Assembly (NCBI GenBank): GCA_001724265.1
Contig: MEDY01000235.1
Span: 1-46,781 of the forward strand
Length of the DNA: 46,781 nucleotides
Direction: 5' to 3'
DNA from: Rhizaria sp. SCN 62-66
Lineage: Eukaryota
Below are positions 1 to 46,250 of this stretch, in pieces. The position numbers and the translations under genes were made by a program. Below the pieces are notes generated by a model that saw nothing but the letters and a program-made list of their open reading frames with translations, was not told the DNA's origin and did no database searches. Each line of letters begins with the position of its first letter. The first letter of the stretch is position 1.

Positions 1-379
1 AGAAGATCTTGTTGGCCTCGCTCTGGGTGAGTCCGTGGCGCTTGGTGACGAGCGCGCGCTCCTGCTGCTCCGTGACCTCGATCTGGTCCAGGATAGCCAT
101 AGCCTGCGCGGACAGAGCCTCGGTCGTCACCTGGGAGTCGGCCTCGAGCGCAGAGTGGTGCAGGTCGAGCTTCGCGAAGAACTCGCGCTCCTCCGACGCA
201 GACTGCGGGAGGAGATTGAGGGCGATGCGGTTCGACGCCTGCTTAGGCTCGTCGGCATACTCCACCTCGGCGTACTCGACAGCACCCGCTCCCGAAGAAG
301 CGGCGCCATCGACGGCCGTGGCGAGCGCCGCCGTGGCGTACAACGCCACGAACAGCATGACAGAAACCAAAAACTTCAT
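1..379 (-). CDS. Secreted protein of unknown function, 5' part (runs off the window edge)
   Basis: ATG at 379 opens MKFLVSVMLFVALYATAALATAVDG...SEANKIF with no stop before base 1. It has a typical signal peptide (basic residue, hydrophobic core, ALA) and GC3-rich codons. It is absent from the ORF track because its stop lies outside the window. Confidence 0.7.
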   Translation of the reverse strand, partial: MKFLVSVMLFVALYATAALATAVDGAASSGAGAVEYAEVEYADEPKQASNRIALNLLPQSASEEREFFAKLDLHHSALEADSQVTTEALSAQAMAILDQIEVTEQQERALVTKRHGLTQSEANKIF

Positions 380-1014
380 TTTGGTTCCGCCCACACACTG
401 ATAGCAGAGCGAGCAGAGGGGCAAAACAGGAAGGGGAGGCAAGAGAAAGATGAAGTGAGAAGGGGAGCTGTGATGACGAGGGTGAATCAAACAGGGGTCT
501 CTAGCGGGTACTACAGAGCGCGCTGCGGGTTCAAAAGTACGTCCACATTGTTTTTCAGGGGAGATGATGAGCGATTTACAGCATAGTGTCCCCGTCGGCT
601 TTGTTGTCAGGTCGCACGGGGGCCTCAGAAACCAAGGTGTCTCCCTCAGTTTCACTTGGCCCTAGGGAGGAGGCTAAGGAGAGGGATGCGGCGCATTTGG
701 CAGAAATGTAGGAATATATTTGAAGAGATTCAGGGCGCCAAGATCCGTATTGCGAACGAGACCCCGGCTTCACGTTGCTTTTGCTATCACATTACCCTTC
801 GAAAGTTCCTCCTTGTCCCCTCGGTCTGGGAGGCGACTTAACTTCTTGACGCCCAGACCTTCACCACTTAAAGCTAAATATTTTGGCCTGTTTGAACAAT
901 GTAACTTTATTATTATTGCAAAAAAACAACGGTTGTATTATTTTCAGACTAATTAGCACTTAGTTTTATTAATTTTGTTTTCATGATCATTTGCATTCCC
1001 TACCATATCTTCAC

Positions 1015-2337
1015 TCAGACGCTCTTGCTGGACCACAAAACACAGCTCTGCTCGAGTCCCTGGTACGCGTACACTGGCACGTTGTACTTTTTGCGCACGC
1101 CCAACGGCACAAACCGCCCCCCCACAGCGTGCACAAACCTTGCAGCGCGCGTGGGCCCAGCTGTCCCCGACTTTCCTCCACTCTAGCCGTCCGCATGCGT
1201 TACTGCAGTTGTCGCTGCGGCCGCTTCAACCTCTGCGGTGGCCTGCTGCTGGAACGCGCGCGCGCAGCCCTTGGGCGCGGTGAGCGAGACGAGCATGTGC
1301 GGCATCACGCCGGTGCCGTAGACGTCGCCCGCGGTGACTTCCCAGCCAGACGGCACGTCGACGCTCACTGTCACGGTTGCGGTCGCAGTCGCGGCCGAGT
1401 CCGAGGCTTGCGCCGCTGAAGGGATGCTCGAGTTCACAGCAGTCGTCTTGGCCACAGACGCTGCGGCTGCGGCGGGGACACTGGTGCTGCTTTCACGCGA
1501 AATCCCGGCCTGCCAACTCTGGTTAGCTGCTGCAGCGCCAGCGCTCTTGTCGTCACTGTTGCGCAGAGATGCAGACGACTGAGCGCTGACCTTGCTGAGA
1601 AAGACGAGGAAGTCGTCAAAGGGAGCCCGCACCAGGGCGCGGATGCGGGCTTCGCAGTCTTCTGTCGCCAATGACAACGGTTGTGCGCTTTGACCGGGCA
1701 TCTGAGCGCAGGTCGCGGGTGGAGTGAAGGAGAAACCAAAGACGGAGTCGATGACGATGCTGGGAAACACCGTGTCAGCGGTGACGCAAGCGGCAGAAGC
1801 GGTGGGATCAGCCCAACCAACAACAGCAAGTGCGTTGGGAATAGAGACAGCGGTCGCAACGCCAATGTCGTTGCATTGGCGCAGCAGGGCCTAGTAGTGG
1901 CTACCGGGACGGGGCGCACGGGGCGCAGCAACAACAACCGAGTATCTATGAAGGTTACACAACGAAAAGAAGTAGATAAGTGAAGTTTGCATAGAATATC
2001 ACTACATAAGAGTATCGAAAATTCAATTTGGAGATAAAAGCTATTAGAAGTGACAATAAGCAGAGATACGAGGAAACAAAGAAGTGGTAGTTGCGTACCC
2101 TGCGTGTTTGAGATGGCGAGCTGCAACGAGCCCGTCACCACCGTTGTTGCCAGGTCCAGCCAAAACAATAACGCGAGGGAAAGAAGTGGTAGGATACTCT
2201 TTGTTGATAGCCTCTGCGCAGCTTAAACCTGCAAGTTCCATCAGCTGTTCTAACTTGAAGTTGTAGGGTCCCATGAGGTCTTCGTCCAGCGCAGCCGCTG
2301 CCGGTTGTTCCAGGTAAAACGACTCTGATGTCGACAT
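1015..2337 (-). CDS. NAXE: NAD(P)HX epimerase (YjeF-N / apoA-I binding protein); exons 2337-2099 and 1945-1015; two in-frame TAG (1893-1891, 1185-1183); ~389 aa
   Basis: Motifs [48 protein letters not shown] and C-terminal [12 protein letters not shown] all fall in one frame after removing a GT-AG intron (2098-1946) and reading through two TAGs. Ends at TGA 1017-1015. Confidence 0.9.
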
Positions 2338-12678: not shown

Positions 12679-15600
12679 TTACTGTTGCGCAAGCTTGGCA
12701 CGCTTGATAGCAGCCTTCGCAGCGTCGGGGGCACCAGTTGCCTTCTTCTTAAGACGCACGGGAGCGTCGCCATCCGCATCGCCACCCTTTGCGCGCGTCG
12801 GGAGAGCGATATTGACACCATGAGCCTCGGAGTAAAGCGCAAACCAGTTCTCAAGCTCGCCGATCACGGCGCGCACTGCGCTGTCGCGCTCTGGAGAGTG
12901 CGGCGCCTGCGTCACGGCGGAGTGCGCCGTCGCCAACAGCTACAGAAGAAAAAGGTCAGAGTGAGGAAGCATGAATTGATGTTTGTGTGTGAGAATAAAT
13001 CAAAGTGGCAAATAGATTGAGTCATCTGAAAATCGATTGCGTTGAAAGTGAAGTTGACTGAAGTGCGATGACATACCTTGTAGTGTAGCGCCTCAAGCGC
13101 GCCGACGTGCGCGACGCCTTCGAGGCGCGCGACAAGGTCTTGCAGACGGCGCCACAGCGCGGGCGTGATCACCGCCTGCTGCAGCGCCGCGCCCGCCAGC
13201 GCCTCACTGGCCAGCGGCGCGGGCAGCGCGCCCTTGCTCGCGGCAGCCTTGGCAGCCTCGGCCTCGGACTTCTTGTCCGCGGCCTCTGCGGCCTCTGCGG
13301 CCTCGATGGCGGCGGCAGCGGCGGAGGCGGTGGCGTCCAGAGCCTGCGCCTCGTCGCGGCGGCGCGCGAGCTCGCGCTGGACCTCGGCCTCGCGCGCGCC
13401 GGCCTGCAGGTGCATCAGCGCCGGGTTAGGCACGAAGATGAGCGAGGGCCACGGCACGAAGCCTTCGGGCTGCGTGCGGAGCCGGTGCGCGACTAGCTCG
13501 CACGCGAGCGCGACCTGCGAGTCAAGCCCCAGACACAGAGTCAGCGCGCTGTCCTGTAGGTTGCACGCGCGGTTCACCAGCGAGCGGCCGTGCGGCGTGG
13601 CGAGCGAGTACGCCTGCTTGGTGTTGGCCACCAGCAGGTCGATGTCAGACAGGAACTCGCGCACCGAGAGGTAGCGCGCGTCGTTGACCTTGAACTGGAT
13701 GTCCTTGAGGTAGATGGGCGCGAGCAGGTTGCGGTACGCCACGTCGTCGCGCGGCTCCTCGATGAAGTCGCGGTAGTTCTGCAGCAGGTGCGCGGCGACG
13801 GAGCGCAGGAACATACGCAGGTGCAGCAGCAGCACTTCGTCCTGCTGCTGCTGCTGCCGCTTCTTCTCCGCGCGCTCCTCGTCCTCCTGCGTCTTGATCG
13901 ACGCGGCCACCCGGCGGCCGCTGAACTCGCCGCTCTCGTCGGCGCCGGCAGCGGCGCTCGCGCGATCACTCTTCGTCTTGCCGTCGCCGCTCGCGTCGTC
14001 GGTCATCGCGGTCTTGACATCCTTGCTGTCACCATGCGCACGCGCACTGCTGCTGCTGCTGCTGCTGCTCGCGGCGTCTGCGGAGACGGCCGCGGCATCG
14101 TCGGCCTTCTTCTTGGCCTTCTTGGCGACGGCGGCGGTGGCCGTGACCGGCGCGAGCAGCACGTCTAGCGCCGCCTGCGCGACCGCGCTTTGCCTCAGCG
14201 CCGCGCACCACGCGTCAGCACCGGCGCCGATCTCGCTCTTAACACCCCCGGCGCCGGAGCCCGCGCTCGACTCGGCCTTGACGAGCTCGACGTCGTCATC
14301 ACTGCCGGCCTTCGCAGCAGCAGTAGCAGCAGCGGCAGCAGCCGTGTTATTGCGATCGTCGCCGTCGCTGTTGAAGCTCTCATCCTCGCCGTCACCCTGC
14401 GCGAGCGTGGCGGCGGCGCGCGGGGTCCAGAGCCCCGAGCCGAGCCCGACACCGGCGCCCGAGGCCGTAGCGCAGTCGAAGAAGGCGGCGACCTCGTTGG
14501 GCAGCTCGGCGGCCGCGCACTCGGACCAGCCGACCACGTACACGGGGCTCTGCGGTGGCAGGTCCGACAGCATCATGAGCACGACAGTGCGCAGCGCCGC
14601 CGACGCGGAGCCCCACCACAGGTCGATCTGCGGCCAGTAGAGTACGCTGGGCGCGTTGCGGCGCGCCTCCGTAATGGCACTGGCCGCCGCCTCCTCGGGC
14701 CCGCGCGCGGTGAAGTCGGCCAGGAGCGCGGGCAGGTGCAGCGAGAAGAGAGGGAAGTCGTCCAGCCGGTGCAGCAGCGCCGCCGCCAGCGCCGCCTGCC
14801 CGTGGTCAGGCGCGCCGTGCAGCAAGAAGCGCGGACGGAACACGGCGCCCTCGCCCGCGGGCGTGCTGCCGGCATCGATGATCGCGCTCCCGGCGGCCGC
14901 GCCCGCCGAAGGCTGGCCACTGGCTTGCGCGGACTTAGGCAGACAGCCGCGCGGGAAGAGCGCGTCGCTCGCGGCGCGCACGCGGCGCCACACGGCGTCG
15001 AGCGCGCGGTCCAGCGGCGGCGCGAGGCGCGCGGCCGGGGACGGCGTGGCGCGCTGCGGAGCGGGCGTGATGGCCTGCATCGCGGCCAGGAAGTCCTCGC
15101 GCGTCACCACCAGCGCCTGCGCGGCGGCGTTGAGCGCGCGCGTCAGCGTGGCCGAGCCCGCGGCCGCGCCTCCCGCGGCCGCCGCGCCGCCGGGGCCCTT
15201 GCCCAGCGCCTGCTGCGAGTAGAGCTGCGGCATACAACGGCGCACGGCGCGCAGCGACGCCTCGGTGCACAGCGCCTTGAGGTCGGCACCGCAGTAGCCG
15301 GCCGTCTTGGCGGCCAGCTCGGCCAGCAGCGGTGGCGCCACGGCGGGCTGCCACGCGCGCGTGTGGATGCGCAGGATCTCCTCGCGCGGACCCTGCGCGG
15401 GCAGCGCGAAGAGCAGCTCGCGGTCGAAGCGGCCGGGGCGGCGCAGCGCGGGGTCGATCGCGTCGACGCGGTTCGTGGCGCCAATGACAATGACCTGGCC
15501 GCGCGCGTCTAGCCCGTCCATGAGCGCGAGCAGCGTCGACACGATGGACGAGTGCACTTGGTCCTGGCGCGAGGAGCGCACAGGCGCCAGACCATCGATC

Positions 15601-17237
15601 TCGTCGAAGAAGATCACCGAGGGCTGCATCTCGCGCGCTTGCTCGAACAGCAGGCGCAGCTGGCGCTCGGCCTCGCCAACCCACTTGGACAGGCAGTCGG
15701 CACCCTTGCGGATAAAAAAGGACACGTTGCGGCCCGAGAGGCGCGAGCACGTGCTAGCAAGCGCGCGCGCCGTGAGCGTCTTGCCCGTGCCGGGCGGGCC
15801 CGTGAAGAGCACGCCGCGCGGGGGCGTGATGCCGAAGCGCGAGAAGAGCGCAGGGTACAGCAGCGGCATGACGACCATTTCGTACAGCGCCTTGAGGTGG
15901 CTGTCGAGCCCGCCGACTGAGTCGAAGCCGACCTGCGCAATGGCGCCCGTCTGCGCTGACATGGCGTCCGTGTCCGTGTTGAGCGGGCCCTTGCCCGCTG
16001 CGGCCGCCGCGCCGCCGGGCCCCGCGGCCGAGGCGGCGGCCGCGATAACTTGCTGCGTCACCTCGGCCAGCACGCTCGCCGACGACGGCGGCATAGGAGG
16101 GTAGCTCGCGAACATCACGCCCGGGTTCGCGAAGCCCAGCGCAGAGGGATCCACCGTGCCGCGCGCCAGCGCGTCTGCTGCGCTGCCCCTGCCGCCAGCG
16201 CCGGCGCCGGAGCCGCCGGAGGAGGAGGACGAGTTGGTGCGAGGGCCCCCACCGGCGGAGCCGCGGCCGGGCGCGGAAAATACGCCCGACTTGGCGATGG
16301 TCTCGGGCATCACTTCCTCGCCCGCCGAGGTCGAGTCGCCCTGCAGCTGGTAGTGGTCGTCGGGCGCGTGGAACGACGACGCGGCCAGGCCGCCGCCGCG
16401 CTTGCTACTGCTGCCGCCGCCGGCCGCAGACTGGCGGCCGCGCAGGCGCCGCGCGGGGCGGTCGCTCTCGCTGTCATGCTTGCCGCGGGCGTTGCCGCCG
16501 TCGTCGTCCTCGTCGTCGTCCTCGTCGTCGTCGTTGAGGTGGCGGCGAGACGAGCGGCGGCTGCCACTGTTACTGCTGTTGCTGCCGCCGCGGGCGCGCC
16601 GCGGACCGTTCTCACTGTCATCTTCGTCGTCGGCATCGTCGCGGCCCCGCGCGCTGCGACGGCTGCTGCGCACGCCGCTGCTGTTGCTGTTGCCGCTCGC
16701 GTTGCGCCCGCTGCGGCGCGGCGCGGCGGTGTACTCCTCCTCATCGTCATCGTCGTCGACGTCGTCGTCGTCCTCGGTCGAGGAGGAGGACGACGACACG
16801 GCATCAGAATCGAACTTCGCGTCGATGTCGCCCATCGAGTGCGTGGCGTTGCGGCGCCGGCCCATGCGCGGGCCCCTGGGCTCGTCGGCGTCGGTGGCAT
16901 ACCCGCTGCTCTCGCTATCGCTCTGGGTCGCCTGAAAGGGGCGGAACGCGGCGACTCCGGCACCGGGGGCGGCGGGCGCGTAGCGGAGATTCTTGACGAG
17001 CTCGCCGGCGAGAACCAGCCGCAGCTCTGGCAGAGGCGCGCCTGCGCCGTCGACCGCGACGGGCTTGTCAGCGCCGCCGTCGGGGGGTTTGCTGTTGTTG
17101 CCACGTTTCGCTTCATCCTCACTCTCATCGTCGTTCAGGGCGGTGCGGGAGCGGCGCGCGGGGACGCGGGCGGCGTCAGAGTCCGAGGCGGACTAGGAAG
17201 ACTCAGCCGCAATGCTGCGGAGTCCCTTGGCCTTCAT
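12679..17237 (-). CDS. ATAD2: ATAD2/Yta7/Abo1-type AAA+ ATPase with bromodomain; exons 17237-13077 and 12939-12679; in-frame TAG at 17195-17193; ~1473 aa
   Basis: Walker A GPPGTGKT, RKGADCLSKWVGEAERQLRLLF, Walker B IFFDEIDGLAPVRSSRQDQ and DPALRRPGRFDRE, then a degenerate second AAA and a bromodomain-like segment. Intron 13076-12940 (GTATGT...TGTAG). The coding-like frame continues upstream of the track's ATG 16865, through one TAG, to ATG 17237. Ends at TAA. Confidence 0.88.
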
Positions 17238-18490
17238 CACGTGGCAACAAAGACTGCTCAAGAGCAGATAGAGCGCGCTGCTGTTGTGTTCAAGTGGAGA
17301 CGACGCGGTGCGCTCAAGCAGTCACGCGAGCAACTTCGAGAGGGGCAGATCGTAGCGAGCGTTCGGGCACCGAGGAGTCCAGACGTGTGATGCGGAGATA
17401 GAGCAAGGTAGTAATGCTAGAGTGGCTTAGCAGACCGCGTTCAACGTTGTAAGAGCTGCATGTTGCACGATAAGTCAATGGAGTTAGCAGTCGGAGGATG
17501 AAATGAGAAGCGCGCGAAGAGTGTCGGCAAGAGGCGAGGAGTGAAGTTAAAGCGAGGAAATACATGACATAAACATTAACTGTGACGGTGTTATTAAACA
17601 TATAAACATTAAAGTAACTTTTGTAAGCGAGGAGCTCTAAATCAGAGAACTTGTCGATCTTACGGACGCTAAACATACCAAATGTGGTTTGCCCGCCAAC
17701 CCAATGGACCACTTTTTTTCGGAACCGTCTGAACGCTTGGTGCCAGCGACCAACCAAGAAAGCAGGCCGTTTCGAAGAGGTTTTGGTCATTAGAGACGTA
17801 AATTTTACAATTGAAAGAATATTGACGTTTTATATATGGCTGTTCTCTTTTGTCACTTTTTCAGCCTCTGAGCGACAATCTGCTTGTCTCAGAAAATACC
17901 GGACTTGTGGATGCACCTGTGCCTGAGAGGCGAGGAAACACTTGGGTTTCATTTCGTCGGTGTTAGCATCTCTCAGCGCGAGATAGAGACGCAGTGAACA
18001 ATTCGGAATGGCTTTGGGCCCAATCTTCTTGGCAAATACTTTTGTCGAAATGGTTGCCCATTATGCACCACATTCTTGCGATGGCGTCGGGCCCGAGCTG
18101 TACTTGTGCCCTCACTCTTGCTTCACTTTTCAGAGTCATACGTCACATATTGTCAATGTTACACACGTCTCCATGTGTTAAGTCCATGTTTATATAGAGT
18201 CATTCTAACCGCGCAAAAATCAGGTCACAGTCATGATATACTATGCTGTGAGGTGCTTGTTCTGGCACCATCGGTGCAGTTTTCGTCTCCTTGCGCACCC
18301 ACGATCCCCGCCCCTCGACAAGCCAATACTTAAGCCGCATTTGCCACCATATCTGTGCGATATCAAAGATATATTGCAAGGACAACACAAATATGACATG
18401 TAAACCAATAATCTCACACGTCTTGCGTTCCGTGATTATTATTATAATATTTTTTTGGGGTATTTCTATCAAGACTGCGAAACGCGTACC

Positions 18491-21325
18491 ATGAGTGTCG
18501 CTTCACATGACAAAACACGCAGCTCCATGTCCAACGTGCATCTCGCGGTGGCGAACAGGCAACTGCCAACTCTGATTGCAAACGTGCAGATGTCGTCTGG
18601 CACGGTGACGCCGATGAACCTCGACCCGCTGGTGCGCGAGATGCTGCTCGAGTTGAGCGTGGCCGAAGCGGCTGACGCGGGCGACGCGAGCGCCGCAGGC
18701 GACGTACGGCCGCCGCGGCCGCTGGCGCTGTCGACGCTGTCCCAACAAGCGCAGCTTGTGATTGACTCACAGGGCGTCTCGGACGGCGTGCGTGAGGTCC
18801 GTGCGCGCGCCGTGAGCTTGATCTCGGACCTTCTGAATAAGAAGTATTCGGGCAAGTACACTGCCGTTGTCTTTGGTTCGACTGCGTGGGACATCGACAA
18901 CAACACCTCCGACGTGGACGTGTCGATTGTGCAGACGAGGAACTTGGCGCCGCTGAAGTTCGCTGACGCCAAGAGGGTCATCAACCAGTTCTGCCGCGAG
19001 ATCAAAGACTCGCTCCGGAACTCGCACGAGCTCTTCGTTTACAACGTGCTGTCGCACACACGCGTGCCCGTGTCGACGATGTACTACTACCACAACAACA
19101 CGCGCGTGCAGCTGCAGGTGAGCTCAACCACGGATCACGTGAACGTCAAACTGCACCTCATCTCCCGTCTTCTGCGCGACTACCCCGTGGCCGTGCAGCT
19201 TTTCAAGGCCATCAAGGTGTGGGCCAAAGCGCGCTGTCTCATCAACTCCCGCAAGCGCTTGCTCAACTCGTTTTCGCTCTTTCTGCTCGTAATCCAATAT
19301 CTCCAGCTGCGCGTTAAAAACCCGCTCGGCGTGATCCAGCCCGCGCCGTTCGCGTACGCGCACACGAACGCTGCCAGCAGCAGCGACATCCCCAAGTTCG
19401 AGCTCGTCGACCTCGCGAGTCCCGCTACTGAAGAAGCCGCTGCGGCCGCCGTGGCCAAGCTGCCGCACTATCTCATAGTCTGGGACTCTGCGGCAAACGC
19501 GATGCAACGCATCGAAAGCGGTTCGCCAGCCGTGCGCCGCGCCATCGCAGCCGTCACGAAGACTTCCAAGAGCTACAGCTTATTGCTTGCCGCTGACGCG
19601 AGGGTCGACAAGAGCGGTGGGAACTACGACGAGGCCCACGTCGACGACGTTGACGACGACGACGAGAACGAGTACGAGGATGAGTACGACGACGAGTGCG
19701 AAGATAAGTACAAGGACGAGAGCGAGAGTAAGGCAGAGGTTGATGACGGAGTTGCGCCCACACCCAGTCCACAGGCCGATGACAAGCTAGTAAGCTACAG
19801 CTCCCTCGTCCGCTCCTATGACAGTCTCGCTTCAGTGCCGTCGCCTGCAGCGTCACCGCCTGCCTCAGTTGCGGCGGCGTTGATGCCTGCTGCACAGAGC
19901 CCGAACTATACCAAGAGCAACTGCTACGGCCACTCCATTGCGCAAACCGTGCGCGAGCACCTTGAGAAAAACCGCGTTTTCTTCGGCCCCATCGTCGGCG
20001 GCGCCCGCGCCATCGTATCGCACTCGAACGGACACTTGTTCGACGCGCAACCTGCTGAATACAAGCTGGACATCCTCGACGCTCCTCGCCCCGCGCCCGA
20101 GTCGATCGCGGTCGCTCGCGCAATGGAGAGCAGTGAAACTGCGGCTCAGCTGGGCGATGACCAAGAGGATGATGGCAGCCTAGGGGCATTAGTTAAAGGG
20201 TTCTTTGCGTTTTACGCAACAGCCTTTGATCCCGCTGTGCACGCTGTTTCTATCCGACAAGGCCACCTTGTCTGGCGCCAGCCGCTGCTTGATCGGACTC
20301 TCGGCTACTCTCAAGCGTGCGTCCCTATCTACAGGGAGAACTCTCAAACCTGGACTCTGGAGGGGACAATGCGCAGTCAGTTCAAGGGTGTCGACTGGCG
20401 GAGCGCGGAGCTGGTTATTGAAGACCCCTTGTCGGCTGTTGACAGTAGCGCGCGCTCGCTTCACGCGCACCGCAGCAAGACCATCTGGACCGAGCTGCGG
20501 CGCGCGCACGCGCTGCTGTCCGGCTCCAGTGCCAGCTACGAGACAGTCGTTTGCGAGCCGCTCAGCAAATCACTCACGCGTCTGCACCAAGTCGTGCGCA
20601 AGTGCGCAGGCGCTGACGCGGTTTACGACGCGCACCACGACGACCACAAGCCTGGAGGCGACTCCACGCCTTATACTGCGACGTCAGCGCTGTATGAGCT
20701 GCAACTTTCGGGCTTTCTCCGTCATATGTGTGCATTTTCGGCGGCAATAGTGAAGAAGCAGCGCGAGGTAAAAGTGCCAGTCACACACCGAGACCTTGTC
20801 GCTTTGCGCGCGCAGGAGGACTTTAAGCGCCAGCAGCGCGAGCAGCGCCTCAACGCCCGGCGCATGTAGCGCGAACTGCTGCTCCAGCCACTCCTTCAAC
20901 AGCAGCGCCAAGAGCACGAAGGGCTGCAACAGGAGTATCTCTACTGGCAACAAGATATTCAAGAACAGCTTGAGCATGGGGCTTTTCCTTATCACCTGTA
21001 TCTTCAGCAGCAACAGTACCTCCACAAAAACTTCCTCCAGCAGCAGCTACAACTCATTAAGCAACAGCAGGAGCAGAAGAAACAGGAGAAGCTGCTGCTG
21101 CAGAAGAAAAACCAGCAGCAGTTTCAGCTCTGGCTGCCGAATAATCTGAATCAGCAACAACTGCAGCCGGTCAAGCCCACAGTTCCCAAGCAGCAGCTCT
21201 CGCAAAAGCAGCCTCCGCAACAGCTGCCCCCGCAACAGCCCCCACAGCAACAACAGCGGCAGCAGTGGAAGCCGTTCTTTCCGAAGAACTGGCAGCCGTT
21301 TTATCCCAAGCAGCATCAAAAGTAA
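18491..21325 (+). CDS. Non-canonical poly(A)/poly(U) polymerase family (Cid1/GLD-2/TUTase-like) paralog 1 with Q-rich tail; in-frame TAG at 20867-20869; ~944 aa
   Basis: VFGSTAW...SDVDVS nucleotidyltransferase motif, IKVWAKAR, LNSFSLFLLVIQYLQ, and PAP-associated LGALVKGFFAFYA...VSIRQG...IEDPL. The frame continues past TAG as RELLLQ... to TAA 21323-21325, collinear with paralog 2. ATG chosen by alignment with paralog 2. Confidence 0.8.
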
Positions 21326-22675
21326 CAACACGACCTACGGCAACAATAACAACAATATCTGTCTCAAGAGCAGTTGCAACTCACTCGCAACCGCAAATAC
21401 AGAAATTGCAGTGCCGAGCGATGCAGTGATGCAGTGAGCACTTGCGCAATATTTTTGCTGACATTCAGACGCATGAAGCAATTCTTACTTCTAATTTACG
21501 TAATCATTTGTCTAATACTTGCAGATATGTCACAATTATATTCATACGAACGTCACATGTTGACATTGTGCTTTCTTATAGCATGTACACCTGTACGTTT
21601 TTTCATTTTCACTGTGCTAGTCAACCGACTCAGTCTCAATACAGAACAAGGGCGTAATAAGAAATCATTGACATAGAAAGCATAGTACTGATATTCTATG
21701 TCTTCAAAGTTATTGTTTTCACATGTGATTGACGAAATTGCGCAGAAGACAACAAAACGTGGGAGTAACACCGAGTAAACTATAACAAGATTTAATGCGA
21801 TTACGTCGTGCTTCAGCAATCAAGTGTTGAACTATTGGTACTAGTTGAGCTAAAATCACGGTTTAATGAAAACATTGTAGTTTGCGCTTCGTAATATCAG
21901 CAGCGATGTAGAAGCATTTGGTACTCCTACCGCCGAGGACGAATTTCTACATATACTACTAATATAGTAGTAACAGTCATAATGCAGTCTGCGAATTTAT
22001 ACTGCGCTGTGATATCATGGTGGCTCCTGTGTCATCTTGCACGAGCCCTCTCGGTTCGGCGACCGTGATCACGGGTGACCGTGAAGCTGTGAACGCGTAC
22101 ACGCTTGAACATGGTGACTGTCCACAGCCGTCACGTCACTCAGTAGGTCAACCGCAAGGCGAGCAGTTGCGTCACTTTTGTACAAGCATGAATGTAGGAT
22201 TTTGATCGTCAGAGAGAATTTAGGTTGTTTTATTACTTTTGAATGACTTATCTTCATGTTAATTTTAATCTTTATTTTGTAGAGAGTCATTCTGTGATCC
22301 AGGGTTGGACCTACAATCCTGCATTTAGCTGTGAAGCTGGAACTGTGCTTTCCACCAATATTACATCTGCCTAATTCGACACCAAGGCGCAAGACCGTAG
22401 AGCCTGGCTCAATTCAAAGGTTTTCCACATAGACACCGCACGATGCATGCATTGGATTACGCTACCCTCGTGGATTTGATGCTTAGTGAGCTTCGAATCC
22501 ATGAGTGTCCACTCAGTGCCACCTGACTCATCATGATCACTCCTTGCTCACGACACTGTATTGCGATGAAAAGAAATTTTTACTTGCCTTACTCATTTTC
22601 CAATCCCATGTTGATACGCCTTTCTTTGGTTAGTTTTTTTCATCCGAGGCTGCGAGCTGCGCGCGTAATCATCCC

Positions 22676-25645
22676 ATGAGCGCCGCTTCGCACAATGGCC
22701 ACTTGTCCGCCAAGCAGCTTGCAATTGCCAACTCGAATCTGTTAACGATGATTGCAAACGTGCAGATCTCGTCTGGTACGATTACGCCGATTGATCTTGA
22801 TCCCCGGGTGCGTGACATGGTCCTAGAACTCAGCGTGGCAGACGCGGCTGAGTTGATGCCGCAGCCGTTATCGATGTCTGAGCTTTCTCGTCAGACGCAC
22901 ATCGTGATTGACTCGCAGGCTGTGTCAGACGATGTGCATCTGGGCCGCGCGCTTGCTGTGAAGCTAATCTCAGAGCAGCTACATCGGAAGTACAAGGGCG
23001 AGTACACAGCCATCGTCTTCGGCTCGACGGCCTGGGGCATCGACAACAACGGCTCCGATGTCGACGTGTCGATCGTGCGCACACAGGGCTTAGGGCCATT
23101 GGCGTATCCAGAGGCCAAGAAGGTCATCGGTAATTTTTGCCGCTCGATCAAAGACCGCCGGATTTTTGTCGAGAATGTGCTCACGCACACGCGCGTGCCT
23201 GTGTCGACGATGTACTACTACCACGGCGACACGCGCGTGCAGCTGCAGGTAAGCTCCAGCGAGGACCAAGTCAACGTCAAGACGCAGCTTATTCTGCGTC
23301 TCATGCGCGAGTACCCCTTCGCGGCCCCGCTCTTCAAGGCCATCAAGGTGTGGGCCAAGGCGCGCTCTCTCATCAACGCCCGCGAGCACTTGCTCAACTC
23401 ATTCTCACTCTTCCTGCTCGTGATTCAGTACCTCCAGCTGCGCGTCAAGAGCCCGCTCGGTATCGTTCAACCCGCTCCCTTTGCATACGCGCGCAAACAC
23501 AGCAGCGCCGGCAGCGCGCTCTCCGACGAGGAGGAGTTCGAGCTCGTCGACCTTGCGAGTCCCGCGTCGGACGAGGCCGCGGCCGCCGCCGTGGCCAAGC
23601 TGCCGCAGTACATCTTCAGCTCCGAGGCCGCAGCCGGCGCGATGCAGCGCTTCGTGAGCGGCTCGCCCGCTGTGTGCCGCGCCGTCAAGGCCGCGGTCAA
23701 GCTCGTCAGGAGCGGCCGCTCGCTTGCTGCTGCCGCGCAGGTCGCCGCGGGCAGCGACGCCCACGGCGACGCCCACGGCGACGCCGTCGTCGACGACGTC
23801 GAGGACGGGAACGAGGACGCGTACGAAGACGACGAGGACGATGATGAGGTCGCGGCTGAGCCCGAGACCGCGGACGCCGGCGACGTTGAGGACGAGGCAG
23901 AGGAAGAGGCCACCCCTGTGGACCCGGAAGACGAGGCCAAGGGTGCGATCCGCGGCGCCGCGCGTTTTACCGACGACGCCGATGTTGCTGTTGTAGCTAA
24001 GAACACGACCAACAACAAACACACCGCTGCGGAGCTGGACGCGACGTCATCGCTGCTTTCGGATGCAGCGGCATCGCTTCTCGCCGCGGAGGGTCTGCGT
24101 CCTGTGCAAAGCAGACGCGGTGGCAGCTCCATGGCGCAAACAGTGTGCGAGCACCTCGAGCGCCACCGCGTCTTCTTCGGCCCCGTCATCGGCGGCGCGC
24201 GCGCCATCGTTTCACACTCGAACGGGCACTTGTTTGACGCGCAGCCGGTCAGGCACAAGCTCGACGCCTTCAACGCTCCGCACCGCGCACCCGAGTCGGC
24301 CGCGGTCGCGCGCGCCACAGCAAACGACAGCTCTGCGACGGAGCAGCTCAGCAACCAAGAGGATGACGATAGCCTGGGCGCCCTGCTCAAGGGCTTCTTC
24401 GCGTTTTACGCGACCGCCTTTGACCCTGCTGTGCACGCCGTCTCGGTGCGCCAGGGCCACCTCGTCTGGCGCCAGCCGCTGCTCGACAACGCACACGGCT
24501 ACGCGCAGGTCCGCGTTCCTGTGCCCGATCACGGCGCCGTCGTTGAGACGATACCCTGCCGTTTCAAGGGCGTCGACTGTCGCCGCGCGGAGCTGCTCAT
24601 CGAGGACCCCCTTTGCGCGACGGATAACAGCGCGCGCTCGCTTCACGCGCACCGCTGCGCAGCCATCTGGACCGAGCTGCGGCGTGCGCACGCGCTGCTG
24701 TCGGGCTCCGGCGCCAGCTACGAGACAGTCGTCTGCGAGCCACTTAGCGAGTCGCTCACGCGGCTGGTTCAGGTTGTGCGGAGGTCTGCGGGCGCGGATC
24801 AAGCCGCACAGCATGGCGGCAGCAAGCTTGAGCATCATGGCCACTAGGATCCAGAGGACGGCGCTCCGCCTGGAGGAGCGTCGTTGCCGAACGACCAACG
24901 ACAGCTGGTGGGCTTTTTCCGGCATGCGCATGCGCTTGTAACTGCCCAGGTGAAGCTGCAGCGCGATGTCACCGTGCCCGACACGCACCAGGACCTGGTG
25001 AAGTTGCGCACAGACGAAGCATCGCGCAAGCGGGAAAAGCGCGAACAACGTGAACTTCTCAAACAACAGCGGCAGCAAAAGAAGCAGCTTGAGCAAGAGC
25101 ACCTCAATCAGCAGCGCTTGCAACAGCAGATTGAGCAAGGGGATCTTCGTCAACAGCAAGACACCGATCACCAACTCCAATTGCAGAGTCAGCAGCTGCT
25201 TCAGGTGCAGCAACGACAAAGGCAACACCAGCAACAGCATCAAGAACGTAATCAGCCGAAACAGCAACAGCAGCAACAACCCAAGCAGCAGCAACCGAAG
25301 AAGCAGCAGCCGAACCAACAGCAGCGAAACCAGCAGCAACAACAACCGAAGCAGCCGCCGCAGCAACAGCAGCAGCAGCAACAAGAGCAGCATAAAAGTC
25401 AACCAAAGAAGCAGCAACACCAGCCGCACCAGCAGCATTTGCCGAAGAAACAACAGCAACAACATCAGCAGCAGCAACAGCAGCAACATCAACATCAACA
25501 GCAGCAACATCAGACACATGCTCGGGAGCAGCCACAGCCGAAGCCGCAGAAGCCTCCACGCCGCGTGATCGAGACTAAAGCCGTGAGCCGTGAGCTCATG
25601 CAGCAGAAGGCTAGTGCGCAAGAGCAGCATTATTTGGATCTATAA
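22676..25645 (+). CDS. Non-canonical poly(A)/poly(U) polymerase family paralog 2 with poly-Q tail; in-frame TAG at 24845-24847; ~989 aa
   Basis: Same motifs as paralog 1. Track ORFs 22676-24847 and 24884-25645 share a frame and are separated only by TAG. The downstream part (QLVGFFRH...QRDVTVPDTHQDLVKLR) aligns with uninterrupted paralog 1 sequence (QLSGFLRH...QREVKVPVTHRDLVALR). Ends at TAA. Confidence 0.82.
25040..25560 (+). repeat. CAG/CAA-rich poly-glutamine coding tract
   Basis: Dense CAG/CAA codons encoding the Q-rich tail of paralog 2. Confidence 0.85.
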
Positions 25646-27204: not shown

Positions 27205-30200
27205 TTAATACAACTTCATCTCATGTGGGTTAAACGCAAGATCGACATCAATGCCTTGCCTGCGCTGCACGCCGCTGTACCGCGCGCACCACGGGCAGCA
27301 CGGCAGCTCGGCCACCTCCTTCGTGAAACGCTCCGGCTCCGTCACGGCCATGGCGATAACGGCGTCGACAGTGGTTTTCTTGGCCTCGGCCAAACGTACC
27401 ACGCGCTCCTCCTCGGCGGCCTGCGCACGCTCGACGCGGGCCACGTACAGCGCGTCCGCGCGCGCAAGAGCGACACGACCAACATGCGTAGACTGCAGCA
27501 GCGCCTCGACGCCGTGATGCTCATGCGTCGCGAACAGGCCGGCCAGTCCCAGCTCGCGCGCGGACTGCAGCGCGGCGGCGTCGACCGCGGCGTCGTCCTC
27601 GTCGTACCAGTCGTCGCCGCTGTCGTTCTCGCTGTCGCTGCCGCTGCTCGAGCTGCCCGGATCGCCATCGCCGTCGTTGTCTTCCGTGCCGCTCGCCACC
27701 GCAGACGCCACCGCGAACGGGGACGCCAACGCAGCAGCGGATGCCGACGCAGACGCAAAGGCAGACGCAGCGCCAGAGCCGGCGTCGCCGGACGTCTTCC
27801 CGCCTGAGGTACCATCGGCACTTACGGCAGCGTGGTCGCTGTGATCCTCGGCGTCCTCGTCGTCGCCCTCTGGGATCGCGTGCGCGACGGCGTTGCTGCC
27901 GCCCGCGGTGCGGTATACGCTCTGCTTGCGCGCCAGCGCCAGCGGGCCCGCGCCTGCGCCTGCGCCGGCCTCGCCCGCGGCGGTCGCGGGGGACGCGGCG
28001 GCGACGCCGGAGAGGTCGACGTGCGGGAGGTCCGAGTGCTCCGCGTGCAGCGGCAGCAGCCCGCGCACGACCATGGAGCGCACGTTACTCTGGTGCACCC
28101 CCGCGACCTCGGCGGCGTCCACGCGGCGGCGCGGCGACAGCGGCGAGAGCGGTGAGAGCACGCCTTCCGCGCCACCAGCGCCGATGCCCGCGTTCACGCT
28201 CAGCGCCAGGCCCAGCGGCGGCGCGCCGCTCGCACTGAGAGTGGCGTTCGCGCCGGGCGTGCCGCTGGACGCGGCGAAAAACGCGCTGCGGCCGGCGCCT
28301 GCAGCGGCGCCGGGGACGGCAGAGTCCGCGCCCGTCGCACGCGGCGGCAGCAGCGAGACGGAGGAGAGCGTGAGCGCGCGATGGAAAGATGGCGCGGACG
28401 CAGACGGCACAAGACCGCTGCCGCCACCAGACACACGCAGGCCCTTGGCCGTGGCAGTGGAGCCTGTCGCCGCATCAACGCCGTCGCCGAGTGTCACAGC
28501 TGCGGTGGCAGCGGCATCGCCGTAGGTTTCGGCGTCAGCATCAGCGTCTGCGATCAGGTCGCCGTCACCGTGCCCACCGGCCGTGAAGGGCGCAATGCTG
28601 ATCGTGTTGTGGCGCTGCATCAGGTCCCTGACCGCGCCGCGGTCGCGGCTGCGCAGACGCGACTTGCGCGACGAGCCGTGCTGCTCCTGGCGGCGCTTTT
28701 GGTGCATCGCGGAGAACTCGGCCATGTGCAGGTCGACGACGCGGCCGAGGTCCTTAAGCTCGTTCGCCAAGTCGTCAAGCATGTTGCTCTTGCCGGTCAC
28801 GCCCGCGGGCACGCCGCCCGCCTCCGCGGGTGAGGCTCCCGTTGCGGCCACACAGGCAGGATCGGTAGACGGCAGTGCGGGCGTAGCGTCAGGGGGAGAG
28901 CCGGGCGAGGTCGCGGGCGCTGGTGAGGCCGCGCCTGCAGAACTCGCGGCGATGGTGCCAGCGGGCGCGACGGGCACAGCGGTGACCGCCGCCGTAGCGG
29001 GTGCGTAGCCGAGGCGTGCGGCGGCGTTGTCAAGGCGCGCGATGGCGTCCGCAGTGGAAACAAAGCCGCCGCGCTCGTCGTCGCCGGAGTAGAGCGCGGC
29101 CGCCAGCAGCGCACGCTTGTGCTGCGCCTTGCGGGTACGTTCCTTGTGCAGCAGCGTGAGCACAAAGACAGTGTACGCGATAAGAATCACGACGATTACC
29201 CCAAAGCCGGTAAAGAACATCGCATTCCACTGGTTGATCTCGGCGTACGAGTCGTCCGTGCCCTCTTGATGCGCGCCCTGGTTAGCGAACGCAAGCACCG
29301 TCAGCGCGGACCAGGAGCCGAGCGTAAAGGTGATGATCTTGACCGCGTCCACGACGGGCTCCGAAGACGGCATGAATTCCTGCGACACAGTCTGTGAGCG
29401 CTGCGGCGAGAGCAGCGCCTGGTGCGGCGCGCTCGAGTGCGCGGGCACCGACGGCGGCACCGACAGGTTGAGGTTCAGCGCGGAGCCCGCGGAAGGGTAG
29501 TACATCAGGCCCCCGCCCGCGACGGCCGGTGACGACGGGGCCGCGGGCGTCGGCGGCGCGGGCAGCGGGCCCGTGCACGGCGACAGACGCCCGCCTGTCC
29601 CGCTGCCGGCAGTGGCGGTGGGAGCAAAAGCGTTCGCGGTCGTAGTGGCGCCAGCGGGCGTGCGGGCGGGCGCGCGCGGCGGCAGGCCCTGTCCGCGCGC
29701 GCTAAGCGGCAGCGCGGCGTCGGGGCCGGCGTGCACGGCGGAGCCCGGGGCCGGGATGGGCTTGGGGCTGGCGAGGCTGATCGAGGTCGCGCCCGTCGAC
29801 GGCGAGAGGGGGAAGTACGGCCGCTGCGCGCTGCCGGGCGTGCGCGCCGTCGCAGTCGCGGAAACGTTCGGAGCGGGAGCGCGCGGCAGGGGCGCCATCT
29901 CGACATCACCGGCGCGCTTGGCCGGGCCGCGGCGCTGCGTCTGCTGCGGCTGCATCTGCTGCTGCTGTTGCTGCTGCTGGAGCTGCGCGTACGTGAGGAT
30001 CGCCGGCCGCTGCTGCTGCTGCGACGGCGCAGAACGGCGGCGGCCCGGGCCGGAGACAGCGGTCGATGAACCGGGCCCACCGGGCGCGACGAAGTTCGCG
30101 TCCGACTGCGCAGCGCCGTCGTGTTTGCGGCGCGTGAGCAGACGCGGCGAGAGCACCCAGACGAGCGTGAGAATGCACAGCGCGAGCGAGAAAACGAGGA

Positions 30201-33200: not shown

Positions 33201-36200
33201 CCACGCCCGGGCCCGCGCCCGTCGCGCCGCCAGAGCCCGCGCCGGCCGTAAGCGCGTCGCCGGTGCCGCTAGCAGCGCCGGAAACGGTGCTGATGGCGCC
33301 GGCGTTGCGGCGCTGGCGGCGGAGCGCGGCGGGCCCGTGCTTACGCGTGTAGCGCATGGCGGTGATGCAGGCGGCGGCCATGACGAGCGCGATAACGACA
33401 ACGTAGACGCCGATGGACGTCTGCGCGCGGACCCAGGACACGGCGGTTGGGTCGTGCAGGATCCCGTAGACGGCCGCAATGGGGTAGCCCACGAGCACGA
33501 GCACGGCCGGGACGGCGCAGACGAGCAGGTGTGCGATGTTGACGCGGTGCTTGGGCGCGCGCACGGGCTGCAGCATGCCGCGCACGACCTCCTGAATGCG
33601 GATCGCATAGTGCGTCTCGGGGATGAAGAAGCGCATGGCGTAGGCGGGCAACAGCACGAGCACGAGCAGCAGCATCACCAGCGGCACCAGCACCACGCTC
33701 GACAGCGCGAACAACACGTCGTCCTGCGTCTCCAGCGACACGCAGCCACAGATGTCGCCGCGCGGACCGCGCCGGCTCGCGCTGCCCTTGCGCCCCGCCC
33801 CGGTCACGCCGTGCTTGCCTACGGTGTGGCTGTGGCTAGCCCGATGCCGCCCGTGGCCCGCGCCCACGCCGGCGCTGTGGTCGAGGCCGTCGTGCCGCGA
33901 GTGGCGCTCTCTCGCTCCAGCGCCACCGTCCGCGGAATCGGCGCCAGTGCCAGCGCCAGAGCTGGGGAACGCAGCAGCGCCCGCAGCGGGTCTGTTGCTG
34001 GCGTGACCCGCGCTCGCCTCCTCATCGTCGTCGTCGTCGTTGTTGTTGGCGGTCTGCTGTCGCAGCAGCCGCGCGCGGCCGCCAAACCCGATCACGGAGG
34101 CCACGTTGATCGATGCCGCGCGCTCGCGGGCCGCTGCGGCCGCCACGGAGGGTTTGTGCTGCAGCGCGGGCGCGGCGGCCGCGTCGGGCTGCGTGGTGTT
34201 GCCGGCTGCGTCCTTGCCCGCGAAGCCGGCGCCGGAGCCCGCGCGCGCGCTGCGGGTGGAGCCGGGCGTTCGCGGAGTGGCCGGGGGGGCCGCGCTGGGG
34301 CTGCGCGGGGCAGAGTCGCCCGCGGAGGAGGCCGAGCCCACGCGCACAGACAGCGCCGCCGCACCGGCTCCGGCATCACGCATGCCAGCGGCACCGCCAA
34401 CGGCGGCAGCTGAGGCAGTGCCGGGCGCGGTGTCGAGCGCGATCGCGCCGTCGCCGTTGATGGCAAGGTCCTCGATGTTGCTGGGGCTGTTAAGCGCGTT
34501 GAGGTTGCTGTTGCTCGTGTCGTGGTCGAGGCCGCCGCCGCCGAGGTCCAGGTCATTGACGGCCTGCACCGAGTCCACGTGTGCCAGGTTGTGCGCGAAG
34601 TCGATCGCGTCCAGGAACGACTGTGCGCGCCGCGGAATGCGCCCCGCGCGCGCCGCGCCGTGAGCCTCGTCGTCGCCCTCGTCGCCGTCACCGTGGCCGT
34701 GGCAGTCGGGGTCGTCGCCAGCAGCAGAAATCTTGGCAGAGACTGCGCCAGTCACCACGTCAGAGGCTCCGTGGCTGTCCTTGCGGTGCAGGCTTCTCCC
34801 CTTACCGCTGCTGCTGCCTTTGCCCTTGTCTTTACCAGCGCCGTCGCCGTCGCTCTCGGTGTCGCTGTCAATGTCGTGCGAGCGGCCCTCGGCGCCGTCC
34901 GCCGTGGCGTCGACGTTGCTGCTGATGCGCGCGGCTGCGGCGGCCTCGTACAGCTTCATGCGCGGAGGCAGCGCCGAGTCCGCGCTGGCGCTCACGCTCG
35001 CGGACGCCGTCGCAGCGTGGCCGTGAGCGACGTGGCCTTGGCCGTGGTGGGGCGACAAAGTCACCTACGGCGGCACTGCGGGCCCGTGCACGCGACCGCC
35101 GACACCGGCGCCGGCACCGCGAGTCCCATGTGTCCCATGCGTGCCGTGCGCGCCCCTGTGGCCGTGCGAGTCTGCGACGCTGCTGCCCGAGCTGTCGCGC
35201 AGCAGGTTAGCGACTTCGAAAGCCAGCGCGTCGGCCTCGACGCCGTCCTGCAGCTCCACGTGCCCGTGCGCCACACGCAACCCGCGCGCGCCATGCGCGC
35301 CGTGGTGCCCGTGGTGGCCGTGGGCTGCGGCGGGAATGGCCGCACTGCTGGTGCCGCTGTTGCGCCGGATGAGCGCCGCGGGCCCCATCAGCGGGCTCTG
35401 GCCGTGGCCGTGGGCGGCGGGGGAGGCGGCGAGCGCGGCCGAGTGCGCAGCAACAGAGCTGCCGCCCACCGCGAAGGCGTTGTTGCCCGCGGCGGCGGCG
35501 GCGGATGAGGTCGAGGAGGAGACCGTTGCGGAGCTGGAGTTGCTGACGTCATCGCTGTCGGCGATGGGCGACGGCGAGGGGCCCAGCCCACCCGCAACGG
35601 GGCTGCCGCTGCCGCTCACGCTCACGCCCCCGCCCGCAACGCCGGCGACGCCCGACGCGGCCGGGGACACGTTGCCTATGTTATTGCCGTTGCCGTTGCC
35701 GTTGATGTCATCGTCGCTGAGCGCTGCGGCGTCGTCGTCCTCGTCGTCGTCGGTGTAGCCGTGGGGCGCCATGGAGCGCGGCGCGGGCAGCCCGGGCGTA
35801 ATGCCGATGGCGGCGGTCAGCGGCACGCGCGCCAGGTAGTGGCACAAGTGCGGCACGTGCCGGCCCGTGAGCGCCGACACCTCGAAGTACGGCAAGTCGA
35901 ACGAGCGCGCGAACTGGACGGCCTCAGCGACCGAGACAATGCGCGCGGCCTGGGGCACGTCCGTCTTGGTGGCGACGAGCGTGATGGGCGTGGGCGCAAA
36001 GACGGGGTGGCCGCGGATCGAGCTCACCAGCGCGTCGGCGGCCGCGAAGGACTTTCGCGACGTCACATCGAACACGACGACGACGCCGGCCGCGGCGTGC
36101 ATCCAGGTCGCGCGCAGGCCCAGCGCGTCAGTAGCGCCAGAACAGTCCCAGAGCGAGAGCTTGACGACGAAGCCGTCGATCATGGCCTGCCAGGACCCGA

Positions 36201-36482
36201 AGGCGGTGCCAAAGGTGTGGACGTAGTCGGGGTCGAAGGCCTTGTTCTCGATCGCGTGGATGAGCTGCGTCTTGCCGGACCGCGTGGAGCCTAGCAGGCA
36301 GTATTTAAACTGCGCAAAATAAAACAGCGAGTGAAACGAAATATGTGAGTTTGGGTGCGCTGGATAACGAAAGAGAGAATGTAGATAGCGATATGTGTGG
36401 TGAATGAGGAGAGACGAACCTTGAAGTCGACGAGCTGCTGCTGCACCTCGCCGACACTGCCGACGCTCGCGTCGACCTGCAT
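27205..36482 (-). CDS. Giant protein: N-terminal Ras/Rab-like small GTPase domain, low-complexity regions and multi-pass membrane segments; exons 36482-36420 and 36309-27205; in-frame TAG at 35067-35065; ~3055 aa
   Basis: Intron 36419-36310 joins MQVDASVGSVGEVQQQLVDFK to FKYCLLGSTRSGKT (G1), followed by HTFG, LSLWDCSG, VVVFDVT, LVATKTD and YFEVSA. ORF 35065-36183 abuts ORF 27205-35064 in frame across one TAG, and the latter has no ATG at its start. About ten hydrophobic helices follow. Ends at TAA. Confidence 0.75.
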
Positions 36483-46200: not shown

Positions 46201-46250
46201 AGCAAACCCTCTTCGCAGGCCTCACACAGAGGGCCCTTCGGCGGAGGCAT
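40282..46250 (-). CDS. RAD54: RAD54-family SNF2 DNA translocase; exons 46250-45045 and 44883-40282; four in-frame TAG (41424, 41394, 41331, 40989); ~1935 aa
   Basis: Spliced LRPHQRDGVQFL (intron 45044-44884), ILADDMGLGKTLQ, CDEAHRLKN, LSGTPMQN, RRTNTLLSAHLPPK, LLSSKAGGCGLNLVGANRLVLFDPDWNPAVDKQAAARVWRDGQKK. Track ORFs 41422-44874, 40987-41289 and 40282-40782 share one frame, interrupted only by TAGs. Ends at TAA 40284-40282. Confidence 0.88.
40946..40973. repeat. (GTT)n microsatellite, encoding poly-Asn in the RAD54 frame
   Basis: Run of gtt repeats. It reads AAC in the extended RAD54 frame downstream of the fourth TAG. Confidence 0.75.

Follow-up and report, generated by a model that had tools for sequence, protein, structure and literature searches.

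In-frame TAG codons in a spliced NAXE gene point to TAG as a probable sense codon in a wastewater protist

We analysed contig MEDY01000235.1 of assembly GCA_001724265.1, deposited as Rhizaria sp. SCN 62-66. The whole stretch of 46,781 nucleotides (nt), positions 1 to 46,781 of the forward strand, is referred to here as the window. Towards its left end, on the minus strand, lies a gene of the NAXE/YjeF_N family whose coding frame is crossed by two TAG codons. We propose that TAG is a sense codon in this organism, with a probability of about 0.85-0.9, since ten in-frame TAGs are spread over six of 11 genes, no internal TAA or TGA is present, genes end in TAA or TGA alone and long open frames follow the TAGs. 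That TAG is a sense codon and the NAXE gene is functional, taken as one claim, is likewise very likely. Under this proposal the nuclear code would read TAG (UAG) as an amino acid and would retain TAA and TGA as stops.

Results

A spliced and transcribed NAXE gene with two in-frame TAG codons

The NAXE gene starts with an ATG at 2337 on the minus strand, followed by 80 stop-free codons that run into GTACGC at 2098. An AT-rich intron of 153 nt (2098-1946) closes with AG at 1946, and the frame resumes at 1945 for 310 codons, ending at TGA (1017-1015). The spliced frame of 389 codons contains TAG at codon 98 (1893-1891, TAG1) and at codon 334 (1185-1183, TAG2). An earlier reading of this DNA, made from the letters and their open reading frames (ORFs) and here called the sequence-only reading, had proposed this intron and both TAGs. 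The NAXE strings that it quoted are all found in the spliced translation.

Both exons match the Pfam family YjeF_N (PF03853) above its gathering cutoff of 24.9 bits, exon 1 with an E-value of 6.8e-15 (55.9 bits, profile positions 2-52 of 169) and exon 2, after TAG1, with 2.2e-8 (34.7 bits, profile positions 126-169). The structures 1jzt_A and 2dg2_A align with the product in three blocks, FGFSF, VDVPSGW..LTAPK and GGRFVP, the last of which follows TAG2. The blocks GxGNNGGDG, DxxFGF, VDxPSGW, LTAPK and the eukaryotic C-terminal GGRF[VI]P, named here from alignments and not from a curated definition, are all present, in order and in a single frame. TAG1 stands ahead of about three quarters of the YjeF_N fold and TAG2 ahead of the C-terminal motif. 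Thus, with YjeF_N matches on either side of TAG1 and GGRFVP after TAG2, termination at TAG1 would delete most of the fold and termination at TAG2 the C-terminal motif, as the sequence-only reading had held for each.

Sequencing runs containing this DNA come from wastewater and activated-sludge samples, and four were compared over positions 900-2700. In X1, recorded as RNA-Seq cDNA, one contig of 1,245 nt matches 972-1945 followed directly by 2099-2369, free of mismatches and gaps. It omits exactly 153 bases, whose ends are CT..AC on the plus strand and hence GT..AG on the gene strand. X2, from the same sample as X1, has the same splice joint, its contigs span both TAGs, and its cover likewise ends at 972. 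In the DNA-like run X4 the intron and its flanks are unspliced and both TAGs are identical. Cover in the polyA RNA run X3 is limited to 1235-1485, which includes neither TAG, and hardly any sequence words of the stretch occur in X5 and X6, from which we conclude nothing on expression or habitat.

We regard the X1 contig as a transcript because it shows the exact GT..AG joint and because cover is absent over the intron and beyond 972 and 2369. As this contig stays colinear with the DNA and free of mismatches across both TAGs, neither of them is lost through splicing or editing. The intron is real, and no further intron removes the TAGs or the two long inserts described below. The cDNA check of the proposed intron and TAGs thus came out in favour of both, with the exact joint 1945/2099 and both TAGs read, and no transcript that splices out 1891-1893 is seen in the X1 or X2 contigs.

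We read the region as an intact NAD(P)HX epimerase (NAXE/YjeF_N) gene that is spliced and transcribed and whose enzyme activity is predicted. An exhaustive HMMER search with NAXE gave 464 matches at E <= 1e-3. Among 5.8e9 clustered and 1.84e9 representative proteins, only two entries fall below E 1e-30, the recorded fragment of this same gene and P0004. The latter is 50% identical to NAXE, begins downstream of TAG1, and its frame is open through its own version of the insert that bears TAG2. Two inserts set the product apart, one of about 115 residues between FGFSF and VDVPSGW and one of about 35 residues before GGRFVP; they are common to P0004 only and are kept in the mRNA. An interpretation of these inserts as introns was rejected, since the cDNA contig is colinear with the DNA over 972-1945. 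A metagenome scan with an alignment of NAXE and P0004 returned 80 loci, the best full-length match being 34% identical, and among them were neither this organism nor the contig of P0004.

In-frame TAGs across the window

A coding census of 13 segments in 11 genes, about 11,600 codons with TAG translated as X, contains the 10 in-frame TAGs in six genes, with 0 internal TAA and 0 internal TGA. TAG makes up about 0.09% of codons, and the local GC content around the 10 TAGs is 0.53-0.76. Among the off-frame codons of these segments, 23,194 in all, 351 are TGA, 74 TAA and 61 TAG. Complete gene ends comprise six TAA, five TGA and no TAG, a small sample of 11 genes. AT-rich DNA follows each gene end, and no in-frame TAG is found at such a border.

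For each gene with in-frame TAGs we calculated the probability of meeting no TAA or TGA after the first TAG at the off-frame stop rate (Table 1). Together the six genes continue for 5,131 codons past their first TAGs without a frameshift, TAA or TGA, and the GC content at third codon positions (GC3) downstream of the first TAGs is 0.62-0.88, as in coding sequence. The sequence-only reading had called NAXE the strongest internal evidence. This holds in that NAXE alone has conserved motifs after a TAG together with cDNA; in statistical terms the Ras-domain ORF is stronger (2,619 codons, P ~1e-21).

We looked for the TAG-bounded protein fragments that conventional gene calls would yield. Four of seven tried are on record, all ending at the same TAG, and each recorded fragment, that of NAXE included, is seen on 4-7 contigs of other public assemblies. 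The TAGs are therefore reproducible and not the artefact of one assembly. Public contigs bearing these genes reach lengths of up to 162 kb. Three Rad54 fragments, tried with guessed start codons, were not found in the protein clusters. Near-identical strain variants of the window's proteins (P0393, P0514, P0515 and P0517, noted in connection with 12915-17321, minus strand) occur in other public assemblies, with gene calls cut at the same TAGs. P0393 differs at 3 of 1,317 residues, none of them at a TAG.

The surroundings of the TAGs show some regularity. AGC or AGT follows TAG at five of the 10 sites (1185, 41424, 41331 and 40989 among them), the preceding codon ends in C or T at seven of 10, and GGC TAG AG occurs twice. 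This pattern may be a context for decoding, the mutational signature that AGC-repeat tracts leave, or a chance effect. A TAG at 44886-44884 was rejected as an in-frame codon, being the 3' splice site of the Rad54 intron, and several further TAGs situated in AT-rich 5' or intron sequence were left uncounted. Neither a tRNA (ARAGORN) nor an Rfam match was found in the window, and eRF1 is not among its genes.

Table 1 Positions of the NAXE gene, the in-frame TAGs and other genes of the window, with the open-frame test after the first TAG of each gene.
Feature	Positions	Strand	Open codons after first TAG (P)	Remarks
NAXE transcript contig extent	972..2369	-		X1; 5' untranslated region (UTR) ~32 nt, 3' UTR ~43 nt
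NAXE exon 1	2099..2337	-		ATG 2337-2335; encodes GPGNNGGDG block; YjeF_N E 6.8e-15; joined to exon 2 in cDNA contig
NAXE intron	1946..2098	-		153 nt, GT..AG; joint 1945/2099 in X1 and X2; unspliced in X4
NAXE exon 2	1015..1945	-		TGA stop 1017-1015 included; C-terminus within 1 residue of that of P0004
NAXE TAG1 (codon 98)	1891..1893	-	291 (5e-3)	5.3 TAA/TGA expected at off-frame rate; exposed face of YjeF_N helix; in X1, X2 and X4 contigs
NAXE TAG2 (codon 334)	1183..1185	-		lineage-specific insert, ~20 codons upstream of GGRFVP; in X1, X2 and X4
AAA+/bromodomain gene region	12915-17321	-		
TAG, AAA+/bromodomain (ATAD2-like) gene	17193..17195	-	1,426 (4.5e-12)	14 codons past first ATG
Tandem PAP/TUTase-like paralogues	18404-25645	+		MTPAP-like palm and PAP_assoc domains
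TAG, PAP/TUTase-like nucleotidyltransferase paralogue A	20867..20869	+	151 (6e-2)	start of Gln-rich tail
TAG, PAP/TUTase-like paralogue B	24845..24847	+	265 (8e-3)	
Ras/Roc-domain ORF	27205-36300	-		single GC-rich frame, ~3,000 codons, Ras/Roc GTPase domain first
TAG, giant Ras/Roc-domain ORF	35065..35067	-	2,619 (1.4e-21)	
Rad54-like gene	40282-46337	-		161-nt AT-rich intron ~45044-44884, GTGCGT..TTTTAG
Four TAGs, Rad54-like gene	41424-41422, 41394-41392, 41331-41329, 40989-40987	-	379 (1e-3)	low-complexity C-terminal extension
Secreted-looking protein gene	2-401	-		signal-peptide-like MKFLVSVMLFVALYATAALA start at ~378; extends past window start

Sense codon, leaky codon or stop

One rival account is that the TAGs are real stops in pseudogenes or nonsense alleles, are removed by hidden introns or editing, or are assembly errors. 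Nonsense mutations in this codon usage would yield TAG in about 70% of cases, and the NAXE inserts are long enough to pass for introns. The cDNA contig, colinear over 972-1945, shows no extra intron or edit, and the TAGs are the same in three runs and in other assemblies. Pseudogenes are excluded by the open downstream frames of all six genes, by the conserved motifs that persist after the TAGs and by the transcript. The protein sets searched contain no TAG-free NAXE nearer than P0004, an absence that is weak evidence. We hold it to be extremely improbable that these TAGs end translation or never reach the ribosome. An improbable alternative, though less so, is a leaky or ambiguous TAG, which would stop translation in some contexts while near-cognate tRNAs or a weak suppressor decode it in others, short of a full reassignment. 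The rarity of the codon and its placement, at nine of 10 sites in low-complexity or poorly conserved sequence, look as if decoding were inefficient or recent; with 11 gene ends, the chance of seeing no terminal TAG would by our estimate be about 0.05 if one fifth of genes ended in TAG; and ambiguous codes are published, for example in karyorelict ciliates and Blastocrithidia. On the other side, TAG forms none of the 11 gene ends, a purine directly follows it at eight of 10 sites, and an essential-looking NAXE fold and the 2,619 codons of the Ras-domain ORF would need efficient read-through. The known read-through contexts CARYYA and CUAG occur at none of the 10 sites. Recoding of the selenocysteine or pyrrolysine type was rejected, as the 10 sites are scattered over unrelated low-complexity sequence; no search for a shared downstream element was made.

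Several points weigh against a sense reading. That all ten codons are TAG is weak evidence taken alone, because the nonsense-mutation spectrum gives TAG so often that 10 of 10 has P 0.026. Of the 10 TAGs, a single one falls in a conserved alignment column, and residues vary in that column. Should translation of the AAA+ gene start at a later ATG, its TAG would fall in the 5' UTR. The cDNA support covers the two NAXE TAGs among the 10, comes as assembled contigs and not raw reads, and is drawn from one sample in X1 and X2. Both of these runs are flagged 'RNA? (probably DNA)' by the tool, despite the library record of RNA-Seq cDNA. The evidence as a whole consists of DNA and transcript contigs.

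Lineage of the window

The Rad54 domain has its best named match in the chlorarachniophyte Amorphochlora (54% identity), with plants at about 50% and oomycetes at 47-49%. For the AAA+ (ATAD2-like) region the best named protist match is Plasmodiophora (52%), some animal entries being higher through several matched stretches. In a quick IQ-TREE analysis of 20 Rad54 rows the window falls in a five-row clade with Amorphochlora and three further sequences (Shimodaira-Hasegawa approximate likelihood-ratio test, SH-aLRT, 100). It lies outside the oomycetes and outside the clade of plants and Bryopsis (SH-aLRT 97), and a green-algal origin was rejected on this placement. The run was unfinished, and the window sits on a long branch, for which the tool gives a warning of long-branch attraction. 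From these comparisons the lineage is possibly rhizarian. A scan of viral contigs with Rad54 gave one locus, 25% identical and irrelevant.

Which amino acid TAG encodes

We aligned the spliced NAXE product with 119 homologues. The TAG1 column contains K23, Q19, E15, V10, N8, T7, R7, H6, S5, A5, D4, G2, P2, I1 and L0, with five gaps, so that 94 of 114 non-gap residues are polar (K, Q, E, N, T, R, H, S or D). TAG1 was said to sit in a helix of the form ..P-L-[FY]-x-x-L-V-x-Q-C, at a mostly polar position, and this is what the alignment gives. The flanking columns (96 L/I, 97 Y/F, 100 L in 110, 101 V/L, 103 Q in 110 and 104 C/L) alternate as in an amphipathic helix, which places TAG1 on the exposed face. 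A polar, exposed column with 0 Leu disfavours Leu. TAG2 falls in a gap for 118 of 119 homologues, and P0004 shares the insert but has no alignable residue there; being placed in a lineage-specific insert, TAG2 is silent on the identity of the residue. The sequence-only reading had favoured Gln over Leu at TAG1. The column turns Leu away, as expected, but does not single out Gln, being led by Lys and offering no choice of Gln over Lys or Glu, and the contexts of the sites are Ser-like.

Comparison of the two nucleotidyltransferase paralogues hints weakly at Gln in two places. In paralogue A the TAG can be set against a CAA (Gln) of paralogue B (R-M-x-R-E-L-L-L-Q against R-E-Q-R-E-L-L-K-Q, nine residues with six flanking identities), and the TAG of paralogue B aligns with His, one step from CAG. 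Against Gln, MAFFT puts the TAG of paralogue A in a gap, leaving the alignment ambiguous. CAG is the commonest one-step transition neighbour of TAG, with 408 codons.

Context was scored by a naive-Bayes classifier on the residues within five positions of each TAG, trained on the window's own proteins. Ser ranks first, followed in log units by Gly (-3.2), Asn (-4.7), Lys and Asp (-7.1), Leu (-12.7) and, last, Gln (-29.0). With the Gln-rich paralogues taken out of the training set Ser is still first and Gln next to last. We also drew 1,000 random 10-site samples per residue and recorded how often they scored as poorly as observed: 1.0 for Ser, 0.14 for Gly, 0.11 for Asn, 0.036 for Lys, 0.029 for Asp, 0.001 for Leu and 0 for Gln, so that only Ser, Gly and Asn pass at a threshold of 0.05. 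At least two Gln lie within five residues at 0 of 10 TAG sites and at 42% of Gln sites, which also speaks against Gln, and at least two Ser at six of 10 TAG sites and 43% of Ser sites. Hydrophobic neighbours average 1.10 at TAG sites against 2.99 at Leu sites. In these tests four of the 10 sites belong to one Ser-rich tail, neighbours are not independent and log scores are inflated. The tests further assume that TAG sites are a random sample of the residue's sites, and a rare new codon may gather where constraint is low.

Taking published precedents with these data, Gln is the single likeliest value, though we hold it tentatively and at somewhat below even odds. Lys, Asn, Gly, Asp or Glu are unlikely even when taken jointly. 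Two other assignments keep TAG as a sense codon and differ in the residue. Ser, inserted by a CUA suppressor derived from a tRNA-Ser, would be helped by the fact that SerRS does not read the anticodon; the classifier puts it first, the contexts of the 10 sites resemble Ser sites, AGC or AGT comes next at half of them, one TAG lies inside the run TCT TCC TAG TCC, and TCG, one step from TAG, is common (302 codons). A UAG-to-Ser precedent exists in the green alga Scotinosphaera (PMC8271138), but in the Rad54 tree the window does not join the clade of green plants and Bryopsis (SH-aLRT 97), so that a Ser code would not be inherited from that alga. With Ser at only 5 of 114 in the TAG1 column, and with the context test open to the clustering and low-constraint effects given above, Ser is possible but appears less likely than Gln. 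Leu, the meaning of UAG in the sainouroid 'rhizarian exLh', would suit the rhizarian best protist matches of both genes tested (Rad54 and ATAD2-like), the junction with Amorphochlora in the quick tree and the wastewater and activated-sludge origin of the DNA, exLh being a rhizarian with UAA and UGA stops and published coprophilic kinship (PMC5304391). Set against this are its absence from the exposed TAG1 column (0 of 114), its context P of 0.001 and the few hydrophobic neighbours of the TAGs. Moreover, UAG is frequent in exLh and sits at conserved Leu positions there (PMC5304391), whereas the window has 10 per about 11,600 codons and none at a hydrophobic core position. We consider Leu very improbable. 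A more specific idea, which we think rather unlikely, is that the window records an independent and still young capture of UAG in a hardly sampled, possibly rhizarian wastewater protist, with a residue that is neither Gln nor Leu and most likely Ser, and with the codon nearly confined to disordered low-complexity segments.

Other genes and composition of the window

Exons, with a GC3 of 0.62-0.91, contrast sharply with the AT-rich introns and intergenic spacers at 35-41% GC. Over the first 300 nt past most stops the GC content is 0.35-0.41, and composition by itself suffices to tell where a gene begins or ends. The least biased genes are NAXE (GC3 0.69) and the PAP paralogues (0.74). The long frames encode an acyl-CoA thioesterase, a MYND/TPR protein, an AAA+/bromodomain ATPase, the two tandem PAP/TUTase-like paralogues, the Ras/Roc-domain protein of about 3,000 residues, a PQ-loop protein and the Rad54-like helicase.

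The PAP/TUTase-like paralogues are 62% identical over 314 residues; both carry a single in-frame TAG and finish in a long Gln-rich tail at the C-terminus. Beyond its GTPase domain the Ras/Roc ORF consists of Ala/Gly/Ser-rich low-complexity sequence with several hydrophobic, membrane-like stretches, and no Pfam domain besides Ras/Roc was found in it. The intron of the Rad54-like gene interrupts a conserved motif between LRPHQ and RDGVQF, and its C-terminal extension of about 900 codons is of low complexity and holds four of the window's 10 TAGs. The secreted-looking protein at 2-401 has no Pfam match.

Discussion

By analogy with known UAG-only reassignments, UAG would be decoded by a tRNA with the anticodon CUA, and eRF1 may have lost or weakened its recognition of UAG. 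The window would add a case to the code changes of this kind, in a lineage whose relatives are hardly sampled. A literature search, whose coverage left out most subscription journals, found no such code reported for a wastewater protist, Rhogostoma or Cercozoa.

In practice, the deposited gene models of this organism break off at each TAG, and nothing but fragments is recorded for the NAXE, Rad54-like, Ras-domain and nucleotidyltransferase proteins. The genome has to be annotated or binned under the right code. UAG-only codes bear on the evolutionary coupling of UAA and UAG, and a GC-rich protist would add an independent data point. Should the lineage be rhizarian and the residue not Leu, there would be two different outcomes within one supergroup. 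Were the codon a young capture as outlined above, the window would offer a snapshot of a stop codon entering the nuclear code, with an outcome unlike the rhizarian UAG=Leu.

Comparison of the NAXE product with yeast YNL200C (PDB 1jzt) and mouse AIBP (PDB 2dg2) shows the same YjeF_N match and the same ordered blocks. Relative to the NAXE/AIBP family it adds two lineage-specific low-complexity inserts and two TAG codons. It has no N-terminal presequence, and it lacks the PNPOx fusion found in the plant and Coccomyxa homologues.

The codes with which the window can be compared are described in PMC5304391, PMC11687900 and PMC8271138. In these papers, reassignment of UAG alone, with UAA kept as a stop, is confined to a handful of lineages, namely Iotanema, exLh, Scotinosphaera and a few ciliates. 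Among published UAG-only changes, the one to Gln is the most frequent (PMC11687900). It is the code of Iotanema spirale (PMC5304391), and among phyllopharyngean ciliates UAG went to Leu once and to Gln twice, with Protocruzia and Scotinosphaera as further UAG-only cases (PMC11687900). Iotanema spirale and the ciliates Hartmannula, Trochilia and Protocruzia, all with UAG=Gln (PMC5304391, PMC11687900), resemble the window in changing TAG only and in keeping TAA and TGA as stops, and their code can be reconciled with the polar TAG1 column and with the hints from the paralogues. The window differs from this group in its lineage, with a GC-rich genome, AT-rich spacers and a Rad54 that groups with a rhizarian, in a far rarer TAG and in contexts that are not those of Gln.

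The sainouroid exLh has UAG=Leu, with 384 in-frame UAGs in 71 genes that end in UAA (56) or UGA (15) (PMC5304391). Together with the phyllopharyngean ciliate lineage that reads UAG as Leu, it shares with the window a UAG-only change and UAA and UGA stops. The lineage of the window may belong to the same supergroup as exLh, Rhizaria, in a sewage-type habitat, but UAG is abundant in exLh and rare here, and neither the one conserved column nor the contexts of the window's TAGs give a Leu signal. Scotinosphaera (Ulvophyceae) carries TAG at conserved Ser (TCC/TCG) positions and stops with TAA and TGA (PMC8271138). The window likewise uses TAG as a probable sense codon next to TAA and TGA stops, and its Ser-like contexts fit. 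It departs from Scotinosphaera in a Rad54 that falls outside the green-plant and Bryopsis clade and in a NAXE that, unlike those of plants and Coccomyxa, stands without PNPOx.

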